A model generated the notes under the pieces. That model was not told where the DNA came from, searched no databases, and saw only the letters and a list, made by a program, of their open reading frames with translations. The translations under genes and the position numbers were made by a program. Of a stretch of 64,000 bases of DNA, positions 483 to 8,404 are shown in pieces; within the stretch, counting starts at the first letter, position 1, and every line of letters begins with the position of its first letter. The stretch comes from a virus, in IMG/VR virus record IMGVR_UViG_3300043570_004127, positions 96,001 through 160,000 of that record; one strand, 5' to 3'.

Positions 483-2735
483 TCAGTTCAAGCCGAATTT
501 TAATCTGCAACGACAGTTCATTGTCATGCGAGCTGGGGATAGTGGGTCGCCTGGGAACCTAATTACATCATCACCAACATTGAATGCATCGCCAACACTA
601 ACCGTTTTCCCGTCGAGAAGTCTGTGCTCTGCTCTTGTTTTTGAATCCTTCAAAGAAATCCAAGTTTTTGATGCCGCACCAACCTGTTTTGCTCCAAAGT
701 AGACACCAGCATTATATGAAGTCTGCGCCTCATGTTCAGCAATGACCCTTTGCTTCTTGGAAATTAGATTAATAAAGATTGCCACCAGGGCAGCCTTTAG
801 CATTCCGGAACGGTCCTCGTCATCTTCAAGCGCAGAGGATATAAGTATGGCTGCTGCTATTTCTTCCTTGGTTGATGAGTTGACTTTTTGCATTCTTTCA
901 ATTTGTGCATCAATCAACTGTTTGATTTCTTCTTCATCAATTTCTGTCGGCATTCCTGTCTGTTCATTTATCAGACGAGCTGCGTCATTTGTAATACCGG
1001 AAAGAAGCGGTCTGAAGTCTTCAAGCATTTGCTTGTCCCAAACATCAATGTCAAAAATTAAACTCGATTCTAGGGAGCCTGCTGCAAGTGCCTTTTTTGA
1101 TTTTGCGCCCATGGCCTTTTCAAGGACAACTCGTTGCTGCCGTTCGAAAAATCTATCTAAATTTCTATCCAAAATTTCAATCCAGCGTTTTGAGTTTTCT
1201 TCTGCTTTTGAGTCCCAGTCATCGATTTGTTTGTTATCTGATTTTGACTGCATCGTCGGTTCGTATGCAGACAACGCACTCGGTGACATTTGTGGTTGTC
1301 CACCCTGCTCTGCTGCGAGTGCTTCAGTCATAGTGTTTGGCTTTTGATTCATGTCAACTATTTGTGCCGGTATCTCTTGGTCTTGCGGCGCACCTTCAAC
1401 TGGAACCTCTGGTGTTGGCATTACCCCCGCTGCTGCGACGCCAGGCATACCTGGCTGTTGTCCAGCCGCTGCAGCATCGGCTGCTTGCTTGGCGGAGTCA
1501 AACTCTTTGTCTGTATAACCAATCGGAGTAAGGTTTGGATTGGCAAGAAGAGCCTGCATGAGGTCTGATTTGATATGAATTCTTCCGGTTGCGGCTCGAT
1601 ACTCGTTGCCACTTATAAGACCATTCTGAAATTCGTCTAACAAATATCTTTCACGCTCTTGCTTGTAGAGAATAAGGATTGGTACATCAGACGTATCGAA
1701 GTCAATATAAAACTCATCGTCCAGTTCGTCTAATGCCCGACCAATCAACTCCATGTGCGGAAGCATTGTCTCGTTCCAAAAAACCCTATGTTCTTCAGCG
1801 GCATTTGAGAATGTTCGACCGGATGCATTGCCAATAACGGATTCCGGAACACCGAAGGATGCAAGGATTTCCTCTTTTGTAATCTGTCGCATCTGTATAT
1901 AGTTGGCATCACGAGGGGATGCACCTGTATCGACGTAATCAACACCGTCGTCAGATGAGACAACAGTTATAGAGCCAGCCCTATTTATATTTCCACGAAA
2001 TCTACTGCGAAGCTCATCTTTGTCATCGTCATCAATTTCTCCTTTTACAACAAGCAAGCCGCCTGGCCGACCGTCGTTAAGAAGGAAGTTGCGATTATAT
2101 ATTTTAGAAAGGTTTTCAATTTCAATGGCGATACCAGCAGACTCAAGTGGAGTCATGGACAGGTATGGGTCTAGTGGATGTGGCTTTCTTACCCAGCAAA
2201 CATCTTCCGGCTTTAGGATTACCTTTGTTCCGTTTCGCATATCAACTTCAAAACCGGAAACAAACTTTTTCGGGTCAGGTATTGGCGATGTGTGTTGTGG
2301 CGGAAGTAATTGAAGGGCGATGATTCCACCATCACGACCGCGTACTTTTTCAATAAATGCCCCACGTGAGGACATTAACAATTGAGAGGAAAGTCTGTAT
2401 CTAAAAACAAATGAGTTTTCACCCATGTTTGATTTAGAGTTCAAAATATCCAATATTTTGTTACTCTGATTGTCTGTGACAATTTTCCCAGTTGGGGAAT
2501 TATCTTTTCGCAACATTGCAGGTAGGCGGGCCTGATTTCCTGCTATCGCATCAATGCACCTGTTAACCCAGGTGACCTTGGCCATTCCTTCTCTGTAGGC
2601 ACGCTCAATATCCCAAGAGTCTCGATATGGCTTTCCAGCCTGGCTTGGGTTGAACGCGACAGGAGCACCTGGCCCGAGTATCGATTTCTGTCCTGGTGAC
2701 TGGAGAGATTTGTTTTGCGAAGAGTTCCACGCCAT
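483..2735 (-). CDS. Portal protein (HK97 family) fused to a C-terminal MuF/SPP1 gp7-like head morphogenesis domain
   Basis: Portal motifs: WVNRCIDAIA, LQLLPP, MTPLESA, NDGRPGGLL, EILASFGVPESVIG, TFSNAAE. C-terminus KTWISLKDSKTRAEH...FPGDP...NCRC is MuF-like. Confidence 0.9.
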   Translation of the reverse strand: MAWNSSQNKSLQSPGQKSILGPGAPVAFNPSQAGKPYRDSWDIERAYREGMAKVTWVNRCIDAIAGNQARLPAMLRKDNSPTGKIVTDNQSNKILDILNSKSNMGENSFVFRYRLSSQLLMSSRGAFIEKVRGRDGGIIALQLLPPQHTSPIPDPKKFVSGFEVDMRNGTKVILKPEDVCWVRKPHPLDPYLSMTPLESAGIAIEIENLSKIYNRNFLLNDGRPGGLLVVKGEIDDDDKDELRSRFRGNINRAGSITVVSSDDGVDYVDTGASPRDANYIQMRQITKEEILASFGVPESVIGNASGRTFSNAAEEHRVFWNETMLPHMELIGRALDELDDEFYIDFDTSDVPILILYKQERERYLLDEFQNGLISGNEYRAATGRIHIKSDLMQALLANPNLTPIGYTDKEFDSAKQAADAAAAGQQPGMPGVAAAGVMPTPEVPVEGAPQDQEIPAQIVDMNQKPNTMTEALAAEQGGQPQMSPSALSAYEPTMQSKSDNKQIDDWDSKAEENSKRWIEILDRNLDRFFERQQRVVLEKAMGAKSKKALAAGSLESSLIFDIDVWDKQMLEDFRPLLSGITNDAARLINEQTGMPTEIDEEEIKQLIDAQIERMQKVNSSTKEEIAAAILISSALEDDEDRSGMLKAALVAIFINLISKKQRVIAEHEAQTSYNAGVYFGAKQVGAASKTWISLKDSKTRAEHRLLDGKTVSVGDAFNVGDDVIRFPGDPLSPARMTMNCRCRLKFGLN

Positions 2736-2744
2736 AAAGTGCGA

Positions 2745-2912
2745 TTATTCCAGTCCTAGTAGAAACCCGAGGGCGCCAGAACAAACCCCTGCGGTAATAA
2801 AGCCCACAGGCAACGAAATGTAAAAAGCGCCAATTGTTGTCATAATTATAAATGACACCATGAGCATATTGGCAGTTCTCCGTCTAGTAAACCATTGTAG
2901 TACTTTTTTCAT
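2745..2912 (-). CDS. Small membrane protein (55 aa) upstream of the portal
   Basis: Hand translation MKKVLQWFTRRRTANMLMVSFIIMTTIGAFYISLPVGFITAGVCSGALGFLLGLE has two hydrophobic segments. Small TM genes often sit next to HK97-type portals. Confidence 0.65.
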   Translation of the reverse strand: MKKVLQWFTRRRTANMLMVSFIIMTTIGAFYISLPVGFITAGVCSGALGFLLGLE

Positions 2913-2978
2913 ACACCCACCGGTTCTGCATCTTTCATATGGTTAAATACTAGTACGAAATACGTTGATGACAGGAAC

Positions 2979-4286
2979 ATGATGACAAATTGGAACGAAG
3001 TACTCAGATACCTAGAACCCAAGAAGCCTTTGTACTGCCCTGAAGAGGCATCGATTACACAAAGAGTATTCCTTAGAACATACGACATAGAAGCCCTTTT
3101 TGGTGGTGCAGCAGGCGGAGGAAAATCGTCTGCGTTGCTGATGGCTGCTCTCCAATACGTTGATATACCTGGCTATTCTGCAATTCTTTTCAGAAGAACT
3201 TATGCCGACTTGTCTCTGCCTGGAGCCTTGATGGACCGTTTTAAGTCGTGGATTGCAATGCATGACGATGTGCACTGGAACGCAAATAGCTTCATAGCTA
3301 CCTTCCCGTCAGGCGCAAGAATTTCTTTCGGTTACCTAAACAACGTTGGCGACTATCTTCGTTACAAGGGTTCTGAATTTCAGTTTATTGGTATGGACGA
3401 GGTTACCGAAATTAGAGAATCTGATTATCGCTATCTCTTTTCTCGTCTACGTCGTCCATCAACTGGTGAATTATCAAAAGTCCCACTAAGGATGAGGACT
3501 GCGTCTAACCCTGCACCCAATTGGGTTAGACAGAGGTTTATCGTTGAGGGACGTGAGCACGGTCGGATATTCGTTCCATCCATGCTTACCGATAACCCAG
3601 GAATTGACGCTGAGTCATACCGACAGGCGCTATCCGCCCTTGACCCCATTGAGCGCAGACGGCTGGAAATGGGCGACTGGTGGGCAACTAGCCTCGGAAC
3701 GATTTTTGATAGAACAGCATTTGTCCCAATTGACCCGATAGATGTGCCACAAGTCACATCATCAGCTAGGGCTGTTAGATTCTGGGACCTTGCAGCAACC
3801 GAGCCAAGCCATTCAAACCCAAATCCCGACTGGACCGTAGGCACTTTGATGCTTTTCGACCAAGGAATCGCCTATGTCTTGGATGTCAAAAAGGCCCGAG
3901 TAAAGAACGAACGGGTTGAGCAATTAGTGGCTCAAACAGCCTATGAAGACGGCCATACGGTGACGATACGAATGGAGCAAGAACCAGGTTCGTCAGGAAA
4001 GGCCCTAATCGACCAGTATGCCCGCTACATCCTTCCAGGGTATGACTTTGGTGGAATTCGGTCTACTGGGGACAAATTAACTAGGGCACGCCCTTTTTCT
4101 GCGGCCGTAGCCAACGGTAACGTTCGGGTTGTCCAAGCCCCATGGCTATCGGATTGGCTTGATGAATTTTCTGCATTTCCAGAAGCATGCGACCACGACG
4201 ACCAGGTTGACTCTGCCGTTGGAGCTTTTACACATTTAACTGGTTTGGGGTTGCCACAGAGGAGACCAGTCTCTATAATCATCTAG
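2979..4286 (+). CDS. terL: Terminase large subunit
   Basis: Walker A GGAAGGGKS, Walker B FIGMDE, ASNP coupling motif, nuclease motifs WDLA and HDDQVD. Confidence 0.93.
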   Translation: MMTNWNEVLRYLEPKKPLYCPEEASITQRVFLRTYDIEALFGGAAGGGKSSALLMAALQYVDIPGYSAILFRRTYADLSLPGALMDRFKSWIAMHDDVHWNANSFIATFPSGARISFGYLNNVGDYLRYKGSEFQFIGMDEVTEIRESDYRYLFSRLRRPSTGELSKVPLRMRTASNPAPNWVRQRFIVEGREHGRIFVPSMLTDNPGIDAESYRQALSALDPIERRRLEMGDWWATSLGTIFDRTAFVPIDPIDVPQVTSSARAVRFWDLAATEPSHSNPNPDWTVGTLMLFDQGIAYVLDVKKARVKNERVEQLVAQTAYEDGHTVTIRMEQEPGSSGKALIDQYARYILPGYDFGGIRSTGDKLTRARPFSAAVANGNVRVVQAPWLSDWLDEFSAFPEACDHDDQVDSAVGAFTHLTGLGLPQRRPVSIII

Positions 4287-4317
4287 GAAGACCTACAAAC
4301 CTAACTATTGGAGACAT

Positions 4318-4827
4318 ATGAATATTGAGGGGAAAGAAGCCTGGAATAAGGCTTTGGACGATGCAAATCGTTCATTAATGGAATTAGAGCGCGCTTTTAG
4401 CAAGCTCGGAGAAAGCAAGGACATTGAAACTGTTTGCTCCGCATTGGTAGAAGCACACCTGCTCAAAGCAAGCATGTCCGTGGCTTACGACTCTCTTTGC
4501 CACATCGTCGATGGAGTGATGGGAAGTCTCCCAGAATTCATTACAACCGATGGAAGCAAAGTTGAAAAACGAGCCGGCAATGACCGCAAGAAGTGGAGGC
4601 ACGAAGAACTTGCGCAGAACATTGCGTCACGTTTAAGCGATATGTCGGTTGATATGTCAACTGGTGAAATCACAATGACACCGCAAGAAATGGTTGTCAA
4701 ACTTCTTGACTACTGTGCGCCATCATACTGGCGAGTAAAAGAACTTGCAAAAATTGGAATTTCCGCAGATAAGTTCTGCGAGGTAGAAGAAAAAGAAGCA
4801 AGCATTATCGTACGAAAGGCTAAATAA
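4318..4827 (+). CDS. Hypothetical protein (recombination module)
   Basis: 169-aa ORF with GGAG RBS, immediately upstream of the Sak-like gene. Confidence 0.6.
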   Translation: MNIEGKEAWNKALDDANRSLMELERAFSKLGESKDIETVCSALVEAHLLKASMSVAYDSLCHIVDGVMGSLPEFITTDGSKVEKRAGNDRKKWRHEELAQNIASRLSDMSVDMSTGEITMTPQEMVVKLLDYCAPSYWRVKELAKIGISADKFCEVEEKEASIIVRKAK

Positions 4828-4828
4828 A

Positions 4829-5473
4829 ATGTCAGACATATACCAACAACTATCAGAGTCGTTCCCACCAGAGATGGTGCGTTCAGTTAATAAAAGTGGA
4901 ACGAATCTTCTATACATCCCAGTTACCGAAGTAACCAACCGTCTCAATAAGGTTCTCGGTGTTGGGAAGTGGTCGCGCGAGGTAATCAAGTGTGAACGCG
5001 ACGCAATTGATACTGACTGGATTATGGCTCATGTCCGCATTACTTGGCTTGCAACGGATGAGCACCCAGCCGTATCTCGCGATGGAATTGATGCAGCAAA
5101 GATTATGCGCACCAAGCAAGGTCAGATTGTCGACCTTGGCGATGCGTACAAGAGTGCAGAGTCAAACGCGTTCAAGAAAGCAGCCCAAAGCCTTGGTGTC
5201 GGTTTGTACTTATCTCGTACTGACGACGCAATCGAAATCGAACAAGCAATGGATGCTGTTCCAGCAAATGCTGATGCTCATCCAATTTGGGACAACTTCA
5301 TTGGTATTAGCAAGAAATTCAATGCTGAGCAAAAAGCCGAACTCCGCTCCAAGTGGAGCGAATGGAGTGGTGGAAAAGCCGTTCCAACAAAAGACACGGT
5401 GACATCTGCAGAGGCTGATTTCCTTCATGTTGAAGCAGTTGCGATTGCTTTCTCCGAAAAGAAGAAAGACTAA
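4829..5473 (+). CDS. Rad52/Sak-like single-strand annealing protein
   Basis: LYIPVTEVTNRLNKVLG..W and YKSAESNAFKKAAQSLGVGLYL are Rad52/22-family motifs. Confidence 0.85.
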   Translation: MSDIYQQLSESFPPEMVRSVNKSGTNLLYIPVTEVTNRLNKVLGVGKWSREVIKCERDAIDTDWIMAHVRITWLATDEHPAVSRDGIDAAKIMRTKQGQIVDLGDAYKSAESNAFKKAAQSLGVGLYLSRTDDAIEIEQAMDAVPANADAHPIWDNFIGISKKFNAEQKAELRSKWSEWSGGKAVPTKDTVTSAEADFLHVEAVAIAFSEKKKD

Positions 5474-5475
5474 AC

Positions 5476-6264
5476 GTGACAACGGAGTTGAATCCACTCC
5501 CACCACACCTTTCAGCATCATCTATTGGGACATTCCAACAATGTCCGCTACGTTTCAAGTTGTCGCGAATCGATAAGATTTCGGAACCGCCAACCCAGCA
5601 GACGTTGATGGGGAATTTTGTTCACGACACCCTTGAGTATTTCTACAACACATATCAACCAGAAGACCGCTCGCTTTCTAACGCGCAACATTCTGCTCGA
5701 TTTGTTTGGGAATCATCTGGATGGGTGGAACGTGTAACGCCGTATCTTCGGACATTATCTATAAATGACTTCCGATGGAATTCATGGTGGTGTATCGAGA
5801 ATCTTTTCGGACTTGAAAACCCTGGGATAATTCATCCTCGTGGAGTTGAGTTTGAGGTCAACGGTGCAATCAATGGAGTTGTAATCAAGGGTTTTATTGA
5901 CCGCTGGATACATGACGAAGACAAAATAACCATCAGTGATTACAAGACTGGAAAAGTTCCATCTTCGCGCTACATGGAAGGTAAGTTTTTTCAGTTGGTC
6001 CTTTATTCCCTGCTCCTCAAGGAGATGGGGATTACATCAGAAAACACAGAACTTGAATTGCTCTATCTAAAAGATGGGGTTCGTAAGACCAATAAGCCAA
6101 AAGAAATTGATTATGAGTCAGCAATAAACTTAATAACAACGGTAAAAAGGGAGATAGACCAAGCTTATGAAGACAACAAATGGCCAGCTGTTCCGTCGCG
6201 ACTCTGCGACTGGTGCGTTTACAAATCAAGTATCTGCAGCCATTGGAACAAAAAAAATGAATGA
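5476..6264 (+). CDS. PD-(D/E)XK RecB/Cas4-like exonuclease
   Basis: LSASSI..FQQCPLRF, GNFVH, GFIDR, DYKTG, QL..Y and C-terminal CDWC..C (Fe-S ligands). Confidence 0.88.
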   Translation: MTTELNPLPPHLSASSIGTFQQCPLRFKLSRIDKISEPPTQQTLMGNFVHDTLEYFYNTYQPEDRSLSNAQHSARFVWESSGWVERVTPYLRTLSINDFRWNSWWCIENLFGLENPGIIHPRGVEFEVNGAINGVVIKGFIDRWIHDEDKITISDYKTGKVPSSRYMEGKFFQLVLYSLLLKEMGITSENTELELLYLKDGVRKTNKPKEIDYESAINLITTVKREIDQAYEDNKWPAVPSRLCDWCVYKSSICSHWNKKNE

Positions 6265-6748
6265 TGAGACTTTTGCTCGGATTGTCGCAGAAGATGTAAA
6301 AAACAACGTAACCGAAAGCCAGCGAGAATATTTGATGCTCCCACAGAATCGGGCACGCTGGAAGTTTGCATTAAAAGTCTTGTCCGAAAATATCAGTTCA
6401 CAAATAAAGGACATCAACGCAGACAAGGAGGCCGACAGTATTCGTTATTCGGCACTTGGTTCGCAGGGGAAGTCGATGCTTGTCGAATCAGGTGCTGCCT
6501 ATGACGCGAAGCTCAATAAGATTAGTCGCTTCATGTTCTACGTTGAAAGCCGTCTTAATTTTGTAGAAAACCTCGTTGAGGATGAGTCTGAGATGTCTCG
6601 AAAAGAGCTCTTAGAAGCAGCAATTCACAAGTATCTTGAGATGCTTGATGAGATGGACTTTGAACGCACCGAACTTGACGATGCACTTGAGCACGCATTG
6701 ATTAACAACTCCCTATCTGCGTTTGACTCAGTTACACTTGAAGAGTGA
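6257..6748 (+). CDS. Hypothetical helical protein
   Basis: Start moved to ATG 6257, which overlaps the upstream gene's end. Coupled to the next gene. Confidence 0.6.
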   Translation: MNDETFARIVAEDVKNNVTESQREYLMLPQNRARWKFALKVLSENISSQIKDINADKEADSIRYSALGSQGKSMLVESGAAYDAKLNKISRFMFYVESRLNFVENLVEDESEMSRKELLEAAIHKYLEMLDEMDFERTELDDALEHALINNSLSAFDSVTLEE

Positions 6749-7047
6749 GATATAGGTCAAAGAAAAAAGAAGAAGAGTACAAACTACGAAGACCTCTCGT
6801 TATTCGCTTGCTCGAAGAGCGACCATGGTGCGAGGCATGTTCAAAATTTGCCGAACACGATGAAGTTGTTACCTATACAAGAAACAGAAGCAGCGACATA
6901 CATGAAATTATTCGTCGTTCACAGGGCGGCTCGATACTCGATGAAGAGAATCTCATGTCGGTATGTAGGCCGTGCCACATGAGAATCGGAAACTATCCGC
7001 AGTTGGCTTTTGACCTAGGTCTGGCTAAGCACGGCTGGGAGCGTTAG
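6745..7047 (+). CDS. HNH-like endonuclease / Zn-finger protein
   Basis: CxxC...DIHE....SQGG....ENL..VCRPCH pattern. Confidence 0.7.
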   Translation: MRYRSKKKEEEYKLRRPLVIRLLEERPWCEACSKFAEHDEVVTYTRNRSSDIHEIIRRSQGGSILDEENLMSVCRPCHMRIGNYPQLAFDLGLAKHGWER

Positions 7048-7078: not shown

Positions 7079-7115
7079 AAAAACCACCTCACCCACTAGT
7101 GATGAGGTGGTTTTT
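7079..7115. terminator. Bidirectional intrinsic terminator
   Basis: AAAAACCACCTCA...TGAGGTGGTTTTT inverted repeat between the convergent genes 6745-7047 and 7130-7480. Confidence 0.85.
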
Positions 7116-7129
7116 GTTAAAGGGTTTAT

Positions 7130-7480
7130 TTAGCCTTGGATTACGGTGAATGCAACTGTCATGTTTGAACCAGCAGTGCCGGAACCGACAGCCGATACGT
7201 CAAGGCTGACAAGAGCGCCTTGTGTGAAATCGCAGTTGGCTGCAGTAAGCGTGCCTTCGTCTGAAGTTCCTGCAGCTGCGATTGAGAACGCTGCTGCTAC
7301 ATCAGAACCGACTTTAAGGTCTGCGGTAAGTGCTGAACCTGCTGGTGCTGTGGTTACGGCTACGTAAGCGCCGGTGATTCTGCCAGCAAACGGCATGGCC
7401 ATTGTGACGATGCTGCTGGTTGACAATCCACCAGCAATGTTCATTGTGATGGTTGTTGGTGCGAGTACTGCTGTTGACAT
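7130..7480 (-). CDS. Small beta-rich virion/decoration-like protein (paralog of 62699-63115)
   Basis: ATG 7480 with AGGAG RBS. Shares VxTAPxGSxxxxD and xxLDVxxVGS...GxNxTV with 62699-63115. Confidence 0.6.
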   Translation of the reverse strand: MSTAVLAPTTITMNIAGGLSTSSIVTMAMPFAGRITGAYVAVTTAPAGSALTADLKVGSDVAAAFSIAAAGTSDEGTLTAANCDFTQGALVSLDVSAVGSGTAGSNMTVAFTVIQG

Positions 7481-7592
7481 TTTTTCTCCTATGTATAAAT
7501 GGGGTACGCGAAAAAGTATACACCAAACAATCTTGACCAAAGGAGAATAAAAAAAAACGTTTATTTTACGTGAGTGAAAAATGTTGCGGGTG

Positions 7593-7598
7593 TATTGT
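7593..7598 (+). promoter_or_regulatory. -10 element for sRNA-1
   Basis: TATTGT lies 6 nt before the rRNA-antisense 17-mer, the same spacing seen at leaderless genes in this window. Confidence 0.55.
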
Positions 7599-7604
7599 TG
7601 TAAT

Positions 7605-7667
7605 CCTTAGGACCGTTATAGGCGCGAAAGTCGGGTGGGGAAACTCACTCGGCTTTTGCGTTTTTTT
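7605..7667 (+). ncRNA. Candidate sRNA-1: 5' seed antisense to 23S rRNA helix 69, followed by an 18-bp GNRA-capped terminator hairpin
   Basis: CCTTAGGACCGTTATAG (7605-7621) is the reverse complement of 23S CUAUAACGGUCCUAAGG. Hairpin 7622-7661 has 5 G-U pairs and a GAAA loop, then a U-run. Confidence 0.7.
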
Positions 7668-7715
7668 GTTTTACAAACACCATAAAGCTATTTACTTTCG
7701 TAAGGCATCGCTGAG

Positions 7716-7724
7716 TGTTACTCT
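7716..7724 (+). promoter_or_regulatory. Extended -10 (TGn-TACTCT) for sRNA-2
   Basis: TGTTACTCT about 6 nt upstream of the structured segment starting at about 7730. Confidence 0.55.
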
Positions 7725-7729
7725 GAAAT

Positions 7730-7865
7730 CCTCTAGCCGGTAGCCGTTTCCAAGGGAAGAAAGGCAGGTGGTCAAAGAGTCTAGTGATTTTTCACGGCAA
7801 AACAATTCCTCTATGCTCCGAGGACATTGGAAACCCGCCTGATGCTAGAGGTCAGGCGGGTCTTT
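7730..7865 (+). ncRNA. Candidate sRNA-2 / structured leader with a 16S 3'-end complement and a terminator
   Basis: AGAAAGGCAGGTGGTC (7758-7773) resembles the complement of the 16S 3' tail. Long-range pairings 7730-37/7844-51 and 7746-53/7827-34. Terminal hairpin 7833-7861. Confidence 0.6.
7833..7865 (+). terminator. Intrinsic terminator hairpin
   Basis: ACCCGCCTGAT-gctagag-GTCAGGCGGGT followed by CTTT. Confidence 0.7.
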
Positions 7866-7888
7866 GCTGTACGGGGTAGTATTCGTCT

Positions 7889-8404
7889 GTGAAACTACTT
7901 GGACTAGACCTTTCTCTCACTTCTACTGGGTACTGTTTCGACGGTGAGAGCGGCGTTATCGCCACTGGCCTTTTAGGGACCGAACGTCTCGAAGCAGTAA
8001 AAGATGATATTTCGAATTTATTATTAGCTAATAAAATTGATTGTGTTCTTCTTGAAGGCTACTCATTTGCGTCTCGTAGCGGGCAAGCGTTTTCTATTGG
8101 TGAGCTAGGTGGAGTTATTAGACTTTTGATACACAATCTAGGGATAAATCTCATAGAGATACCCCCAACATGTAGGGCCAAGTTTGCAACAGGAAAAGGG
8201 AACGCCTCCAAGAATGAGGTTATCTCAGCAATATCTGCCCGAACCGGAATCGTGTGGGGGAATCCTGGCGCTGATGATAAATGTGATGCTTGGATTCTTG
8301 AAGAGATGGGTCTTGCTCGTCTCGGCAAACAAAGATATTCTTGGCCAGACGTAAACATGTCTGCTCTGGAGAAGATAGATTGGACTCCTCTCGAAGGGAA
8401 TTAA
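7889..8404 (+). CDS. ruvC: RuvC-like Holliday junction resolvase
   Basis: LGLDLSLTSTG, LLEGY, ELGGVIR, KFATGKGNASK, DxCDA. Confidence 0.85.
   Translation: MKLLGLDLSLTSTGYCFDGESGVIATGLLGTERLEAVKDDISNLLLANKIDCVLLEGYSFASRSGQAFSIGELGGVIRLLIHNLGINLIEIPPTCRAKFATGKGNASKNEVISAISARTGIVWGNPGADDKCDAWILEEMGLARLGKQRYSWPDVNMSALEKIDWTPLEGN

Follow-up and report, generated by a model that had tools for sequence, protein, structure and literature searches.

The 405-nt gap between two divergent genes of a lake-water phage raises the question of whether two small RNAs predicted within it form one system that acts on both subunits of the host ribosome. Helix 69 of 23S rRNA makes up the central intersubunit bridge of the ribosome, and mRNAs dock at the 3' tail of 16S rRNA. 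The preliminary description of this locus proposed that two adjacent RNAs, the first matching helix 69 in the 50S subunit and the second matching the anti-Shine-Dalgarno (anti-SD) sequence in the 30S subunit, make up a coordinated cassette for translation takeover or ribosome protection. Here, we find both units, referred to as RNA1 and RNA2, on the + strand where they had been proposed, and we describe their folds, their complementarity to rRNA and their distribution among related phages.

Results

The RNA genes lie between a divergent gene and a RuvC-led operon

The window, i.e., the whole 64-kb stretch of DNA that was analyzed, forms part of a 79.5-kb IMG/VR virus record that is ~54% complete, and DNA of this phage is present in many lake-water metagenomes. 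Neither the region nor the surrounding 7 kb had a blastn match in cultured phages. The TerL protein has only ~41% identity to proteins of Gordonia phages, Brevibacterium phages and psiM2, and this similarity hints at an actinobacterial host without assigning one. For comparison, we recruited 160 related viral loci using RuvC and the 117-aa protein. The two RNA genes are co-oriented and lie within the 405-nt gap bounded by the following genes:

7130..7483, − strand, divergent 117-aa gene without known function
7889..8404, + strand, gene for a RuvC-like Holliday junction resolvase (phrog_159, E 1.4e-30)

RuvC is the first gene of a long rightward operon that includes ParB-like and tail-sheath genes. 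Among ~96 viral contigs, identity of the 117-aa protein reaches 93%, and the protein has no PHROG family match. Assembled contigs from four lake metatranscriptomes covered only the 117-aa gene and are uninformative on the expression of RNA1 and RNA2; because this gene is the sole part of the region under such contigs, it is probably highly expressed and may be structural. Between this gene and the convergent HNH endonuclease gene (6745-7047), a hairpin with flanking A-runs and T-runs (7085-7115) resembles a bidirectional terminator. At the gathering threshold of Rfam 15, no family matched in the whole window, and a permissive scan of 7400-8000 returned noise only (E 0.3-6, 13-18 bits). No tRNA or tmRNA was found.

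RNA1 is a conserved hairpin RNA with an unpaired 5' tail

RNA1 and its upstream elements comprise the following features:

about 7605-7671, + strand, RNA1, ~65 nt, with a -10 box, an unpaired 5' tail, a hairpin and a U-run
7564-7569, + strand, TTTACG hexamer, 22 nt 5' of the -10 box
7593..7598, + strand, -10 box TATTGT (TAnnnT in relatives)
7605..7621, + strand, 5' tail (seed) CCTTAGGACCGTTATAG, 17 nt, perfect antisense of 23S rRNA and invariant among relatives
7620..7663, + strand, hairpin of 16-20 bp (20 pairs in the terminator scan)
7664..7675, + strand, U-run 3' of the hairpin, an intrinsic terminator in this phage according to the terminator scan

RNA1 has a predicted folding energy of −30.8 kcal/mol (z −5.5), and in the minimum free energy structure the 5' tail is free over about 15-17 nt. 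Because of its many G.U pairs, the hairpin folds on the + strand only. Judging from its conservation and covariation, RNA1 belongs to a widespread, previously undescribed phage RNA family. First, the stretch 7584-7665 retains 91-97% DNA identity among phages in which RuvC identity is only 50-70%, and the core 20 nt of the element are unchanged even in the most distant relatives. Second, in the 16-bp core of the hairpin, 570 of 570 cells are paired over 36 distinct sequences, with compensatory changes in 11 of the 16 pairs; in a control with slid partners, pairing was 35-54%. Third, in 44 of 47 distinct relatives, a TAnnnT hexamer ends 7-8 nt 5' of the invariant block; this hexamer occurs in 13 versions, TATAAT among them. 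This fixed distance points to a host-type transcription start at ~7605 and puts the antisense block at about +1, in agreement with the start that had been predicted for it.

As proposed, each unit has its own -10 box, i.e., TATTGT for RNA1 and an extended TGtTACTCT for RNA2, and both are conserved. In both promoters, the -10 TAnnnT box is preceded, at a distance of exactly 22 nt, by a TTRACA/TTTACT hexamer (7564-7598 and 7693-7724). This spacing is too long for the hexamer to be a standard sigma-70 -35 element, and the hexamer may be the site of a regulator or reflect a promoter form particular to the host.

Each unit had also been ascribed its own terminator. This holds for RNA2, in which the terminator is conserved, and it holds for RNA1 in this phage but not across relatives: The U-run after the RNA1 hairpin is present in the window, L002 and L160, and many relatives have a non-U sequence at this position. 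In many relatives, RNA1 is located 70-85 nt before RuvC and has no U-run. In these relatives, RNA1 would thus form a 5' leader and not a free small RNA (sRNA), with transcription from P1 continuing into RNA2 or RuvC. With its own promoter and a conserved seed at the 5' end, RNA1 resembles seed-plus-terminator trans-acting sRNAs. By eye, the RNA1 tail had no consistent complementarity to RNA2 or to the RuvC leader.

The RNA1 tail is complementary to helix 69 of 23S rRNA

Over all of its 17 nt, the RNA1 tail (7605-7621) is perfectly antisense to the 23S rRNA segment CTATAACGGTCCTAAGG, as checked on a real rrn operon (L166, Neobacillus; 16S at 1792-3341, 23S at 3551-6486), and the match to helix 69 in the preliminary description is thus borne out. 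In E. coli numbering, the target is C1914-G1930, which comprises the helix 69 loop, its 3' strand and the linker to H70. The next-longest complement to 16S or 23S rRNA on either strand of the 64-kb window is 13 nt.

The same complementarity recurs in relatives. When 194 distinct RuvC-upstream regions were compared with a 62-nt 23S segment, 73 regions had a longest complement of 16-18 nt on the RNA strand, and a further 25 had one of 10-15 nt; on the opposite strand of the same 194 regions, it was always ≤9 nt. Variant seeds cover differing, overlapping pieces of 23S rRNA at about 1910-1941, as in the following 23S-complementary stretches:

L227, ACCTTAGGACCGTTATAG, 18 nt
L083 type, GACCGTTATAG
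L090 type, TACCTTAGGAC
L178/L183/L267, TCGCTACCT, with weaker matches downstream
L357 (from another phage group), 28 nt that include GAATTTCGCTA, extended to 31 nt by one G.U when the L166 copy is the partner

These extensions reach past the shared core and, therefore, could not have been inherited from it. That diverged lineages match overlapping parts of 23S rRNA over up to 28-31 nt excludes chance, and also a promoter for a phage RNA polymerase, as the source of the RNA1 match. On the strength of these alignments, the complementarity of RNA1 to 23S rRNA greatly exceeds what chance would produce, and it has been kept or lengthened in several lineages. The predicted duplex energy of RNA1 against whole rRNA is −31.4 kcal/mol, compared to a mean of −19.4 and a minimum of −29.4 kcal/mol for random 21-mers; an energy-only null discriminates poorly for RNA1, and exact-match statistics are the better test.

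Substitutions within the seed are of two kinds. A-to-G variants (L033-L038; L067) preserve pairing as G.U, and a recurrent U-to-C change near the 3' edge of the seed, opposite A1916, costs one pair. Upstream of RuvC in the distant relatives L090, L092, L093, L152 and L161, only TACCTTAGGA(C) is retained of the seed; this remnant is flanked by one hairpin on its 5' side and by another, different one on its 3' side, and the complementarity has moved toward 23S 1922-1932.

The 23S target is identical at ~150 sites in 83 Pseudomonadota genomes, one copy excepted, and is contained in all 13 rrn copies of the Neobacillus genome. Because the target is invariant across the bacteria sampled, the seed cannot indicate the host class, contrary to an earlier suggestion that it might. 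The deviating helix 69 sequence suggested for Actinomycetia in the preliminary description is, in our view, doubtful. In L166:5490-5515, a Neobacillus mesonae rrn copy, and in L167, the 23S sequence reads ACCTATAAC rather than the usual AACTATAAC, i.e., there is a C at the normally universal A1913. Only two to three such cases occur among 185,579 genomes, and they may be real rare variants or assembly errors.

The RNA1 17-mer is present in a single copy per complete genome, and no phage-encoded complement of the tail was found at ≤3 mismatches in the window and four complete relatives. In 185,579 prokaryote genomes, the exact 17-mer had nine matches, which are rare 23S variants or chance coding matches; no match was accompanied by the hairpin, and no prophage or host copy of RNA1 was found in these genomes. 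A full-text literature search returned no RNA comparable to RNA1.

RNA2 carries a conserved SD-like block and a terminator

RNA2 and its upstream elements comprise the following features:

about 7730-7870, + strand, RNA2, ~140 nt, with a separate promoter, hairpins supported by covariation, a pseudoknot that involves a loop, and a terminator
7693-7698, + strand, TTTACT hexamer, 22 nt 5' of the extended -10, in conserved alignment columns
7716..7724, + strand, extended -10 TGtTACTCT, in conserved alignment columns
7730..7737, + strand, 5' pseudoknot strand CCTCTAGC, whose partner is the terminator loop GCTAGAGG at 7844-7851
7761..7773, + strand, SD-like block AAGGCAGGTGGTC, in which the GGTGGT part is invariant
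7784..7795, + strand, hairpin P3 (GTGA...TCAC) followed by a conserved GGCAAA, 100% paired, 3 of 5 pairs compensatory
7833..7870 (stem 7833-7861), + strand, intrinsic terminator and conserved TTTGCT tract, 11 pairs, 100% paired, 3 compensatory

RNA2 has a predicted folding energy of −52.1 kcal/mol (z −2.8), and its terminator ends ~25 nt before the RuvC start. In an alignment of 25 relatives (~165 columns), the extended -10, a 5' CATCTAGCC, AGAARGG..GGTGGT, the hairpin with GGCAAA, and the terminator with TTTGCT are conserved, and the middle is variable. The pseudoknot is paired in 89% of cells, with an A-U to C-G change in this phage and its nearest relative.

Between the SD-like block AAGGCAGGTGGTC and the 16S tail GGAUCACCUCCUU, a duplex of 12 bp is predicted that includes one G.U pair and a single bulged C and has an energy of −17.0 kcal/mol. 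This energy is equaled by 0.35% of 2840 genomic 135-nt windows and by 1.9% of dinucleotide shuffles, and the strongest of 48 real ribosome-binding sites in the window is weaker at −14.9 kcal/mol. In 25 of 25 RNA2 relatives, the block is the best site for the 16S tail (−16 to −20.6 kcal/mol), and in the L117-type lineage it gives 14-15 contiguous pairs. The anti-SD match claimed for RNA2 is, therefore, conserved and unusually strong, but it is imperfect: The bulged C interrupts the GGAGG core nearly always, leaving no clean GGAGG, and the block is predicted to be paired internally in most relatives. No conserved start codon lies behind the block, and the nearby GTG (7784), 11 nt past GGTGGT, is not conserved; a small open reading frame with a true ribosome-binding site at this position was rejected on these grounds.

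The internal partner of the block differs between lineages. In the window, L003, L069/L072, L076 and the L083 type, it is the 5' arm of the terminator, and elsewhere it is a downstream RCCRCC segment. Because the block can pair with the terminator 5' arm, it is a candidate antiterminator; this pairing occurs in some lineages only, and only via wobble-compatible changes, whereas the terminator itself is well supported. These pairings raise the possibility that RNA2 is purely a cis-acting attenuator or riboswitch-like leader, in which the block would be conserved as an antiterminator or helix strand and its likeness to an SD sequence would be a by-product of a G-rich stem. The near-constant bulged C and the conserved position of the terminator adjoining RuvC are what such a leader would display. 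However, GGTGGT is invariant although its partners vary, the L117-type lineage has uninterrupted pairing with the 16S tail, the duplex energy falls in the top 0.35% of genome windows, and no Rfam family was matched. We consider a purely cis-acting RNA2 somewhat unlikely. As far as its sequence and predicted pairing allow a comparison, RNA2 is as close to a STAB-SD-type stabilizer or an antiterminator as it is to a ribosome sponge.

RNA1 and RNA2 occur together and separately

The exact RNA1 17-mer occurs in at least 115 viral contigs, with a strong hairpin 3' of it in all those listed. RuvC lies ≤500 nt downstream in 98 of the 115 contigs listed; RNA2 is nearby in 56 of these 98 and absent from the other 42. 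Nine of the listed contigs belong to another phage group, in which RNA1 stands alone beside an endonuclease gene, without RuvC or RNA2, and has a small 5' GAAA hairpin and a U-tail. Members of this second group are L357:6190-6240, L365, L375, L377, L379, L408, L442, L445 and L449. In all of them except L357, TAGCGGTC is located between the hairpin and the U-run, and the seed can pair with this segment; possibly, this is a self-masked form of RNA1.

Covariance models R1 and R2 recovered four layouts, i.e., RNA1-RNA2-RuvC, RNA2-RNA1-RuvC, RNA1 alone and RNA2 alone. Among complete genomes, G003 contains both RNAs at a distance of 2.7 kb, only RNA1 is present in G009 (by model and by pattern), G005 has only RNA2, directly upstream of RuvC, and G006-G008 have neither. 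Since each RNA occurs alone in complete genomes, RNA2 is missing from 42 of the 98 listed RuvC-linked contigs, and one phage group has RNA1 only, the pair is not obligatory. RNA1 and RNA2 are frequent neighbors, yet separable modules. The proposed co-occurrence and synteny are, thus, partly borne out: The two are found in three arrangements, but their order varies and each is also found by itself.

These distributions bear directly on the idea of one coordinated system, in which RNA1 would grip helix 69 of the 50S subunit and RNA2 the anti-SD sequence of the 30S subunit for translation takeover or protection. Both complementarities are conserved; the RNAs co-occur as RNA1-RNA2, as RNA2-RNA1 and, in G003, at a distance; a single transcript would carry both where RNA1 lacks a U-run; and about two thirds of the phage genes have a weak SD sequence or none, so that a block on the anti-SD sequence could favor these genes. 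Set against this are the complete genomes with either RNA alone, the listed RuvC-linked contigs without RNA2, the second phage group with RNA1 and no RNA2, and the predicted internal pairing of the RNA2 block. Of the cassette in the preliminary description, what stands is that both units are structured RNA genes often found together; the obligatory pairing of the two does not. A coordinated two-subunit system is possible as a minority reading, and we regard it as quite unlikely.

The proximity to RuvC also allows for RNA1 acting only in cis, as a 5' leader of the RuvC operon in which a stabilizing hairpin is preceded by a tail for a protein or RNase, with the rRNA match as a relic of captured rDNA. 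The 98 listed contigs with RuvC close downstream, many without a terminator between RNA1 and RuvC, agree with such a leader. The nine contigs in which RNA1 stands alone with a U-tail and without RuvC do not, and a relic would be expected to decay, yet no part of the element varies less than the tail, and diverged lineages lengthen the 23S complementarity in different directions. We find it doubtful that RNA1 is a cis-acting leader only. Finally, the 17-mer ends in TATAGG directly before the hairpin and resembles SP6/K11 (T7-class) promoters (TTAGG...TATAG), but a role as promoter for a phage single-subunit RNA polymerase, with the hairpin as the 5' stem-loop of the transcript, was rejected as most improbable, given that there is one copy per 150-170-kb complete genome even at 3 mismatches, that no PF00940 match was found in its own contig and four complete relatives (a weak test, as control genomes were also silent), and that a host-type -10 box lies at a fixed upstream distance.

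Discussion

We give an even chance to a scenario in which RNA1 and RNA2 are two independent, separable modules that head the RuvC-led operon, with RNA1 pairing with 23S rRNA in trans and RNA2 serving as a structured leader or sRNA. From the genes, folds, conservation and complementarities described above, we infer the following binding events and physiological effects. A host-type promoter would start RNA1 at the first bases of its 17-nt single-stranded tail, and the long hairpin would stabilize the RNA and, in this phage, also serve as terminator. Selection would maintain the complementarity of the tail to 23S 1914-1930. In mature 50S subunits, the bases of 23S 1914-1930 are in helix 69, are paired and include m3-pseudouridine 1915. 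Because mature helix 69 is paired and modified, access to it is uncertain, which argues for a pre-50S target. Most likely, RNA1 would therefore pair in trans with host 23S rRNA before this segment is folded or modified and would, thereby, interfere with the formation of helix 69, with late steps of 50S maturation or with the joining of the subunits; alternatively, the duplex might create a double-stranded site for RNase III. RNA2 would be transcribed from its own promoter and end at the conserved intrinsic terminator just 5' of RuvC. Its block may bind the 16S 3' tail of the 30S subunit in the manner of a STAB-SD or may bind the terminator 5' arm as an antiterminator, and in both cases it would modulate the stability of the RNA and the read-through into RuvC.

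In its architecture, RNA1 is similar to RybB, OmrA/B-type sRNAs and prophage DicF, with which it shares its own promoter, a single-stranded conserved 5' end at ~+1, a length of ~65 nt and, in this phage, a U-run that follows the 3' hairpin. It differs from them in that its complement is 23S rRNA rather than mRNA and spans 17-31 contiguous nt rather than the usual 7-12, in that its U-run is not conserved, and in that its target is a predicted one. The C/D and H/ACA guide sRNAs of archaea and eukaryotes also have long antisense elements to functional centers of rRNA, including helix 69. By contrast to these guides, RNA1 has no guide-RNP genes nearby and is found in a bacterial/viral setting; on reading 7605-7671, neither C/D (RUGAUGA, CUGA) nor H/ACA motifs were found.

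For RNA2, the closest parallels are leader elements. The STAB-SD of Bacillus thuringiensis cry3A (Agaisse and Lereclus 1996) is a noninitiating, SD-like 5' element at which 30S binding blocks RNase J1 (PMC4113751). Like the STAB-SD as described in PMC4113751, the RNA2 block is SD-like, is located in a 5' UTR >100 nt before the start codon, does not support initiation and is complementary to the 16S 3' end. RNA2 agrees with STAB-SD elements in having an SD-like sequence in the 5' UTR without a start codon at initiation distance, and in its complementarity to the 16S 3' end. It differs in that its block is embedded in a larger conserved, pseudoknotted fold that is followed by a terminator. Like attenuators, riboswitch leaders and the short, terminated leader RNAs that precede phage late operons (lambda 6S/tR'), RNA2 is structured, promoter proximal and ends at an intrinsic terminator immediately 5' of the gene that opens a long operon, and one of its upstream strands may compete for the terminator 5' arm. 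RNA2 differs from these leaders in having no known ligand, leader peptide or antiterminator protein, and no Rfam match.

In Rfam and in a full-text literature search, we found no phage or bacterial small RNA that targets helix 69 or the 16S tail. The broader idea that small RNAs of many uncultured phages are direct ligands of host rRNA, with RNA1 binding helix 69-H71 and RNA2 binding the 16S tail in trans such that, jointly or each by itself, they would reprogram, stall or shield ribosomes during infection, is tentative and, in our estimate, unlikely. If true, it would represent RNA-based control of translation without a described precedent. An invariant RNA1 region tracks an invariant rRNA segment in well over 100 lake-phage contigs, and this makes RNA action on ribosomes testable; because the 23S target is universal, seed mutants can be tested in any laboratory bacterium. 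Even under the more ordinary readings, i.e., a 5' stabilizer and an attenuator, phage gene regulation would gain, with RNA1 and RNA2, two new families of structured RNA.

A further observation concerns relatives that have RNA2 only. In L069, L072 and L174:1600-1640, GACAAGGAA is located just 5' of the SD-like block. It is a 9-nt complement of 23S UUCCUUGUC (H70/71), a length at chance level in the control, but the segment that it matches adjoins the RNA1 target region.
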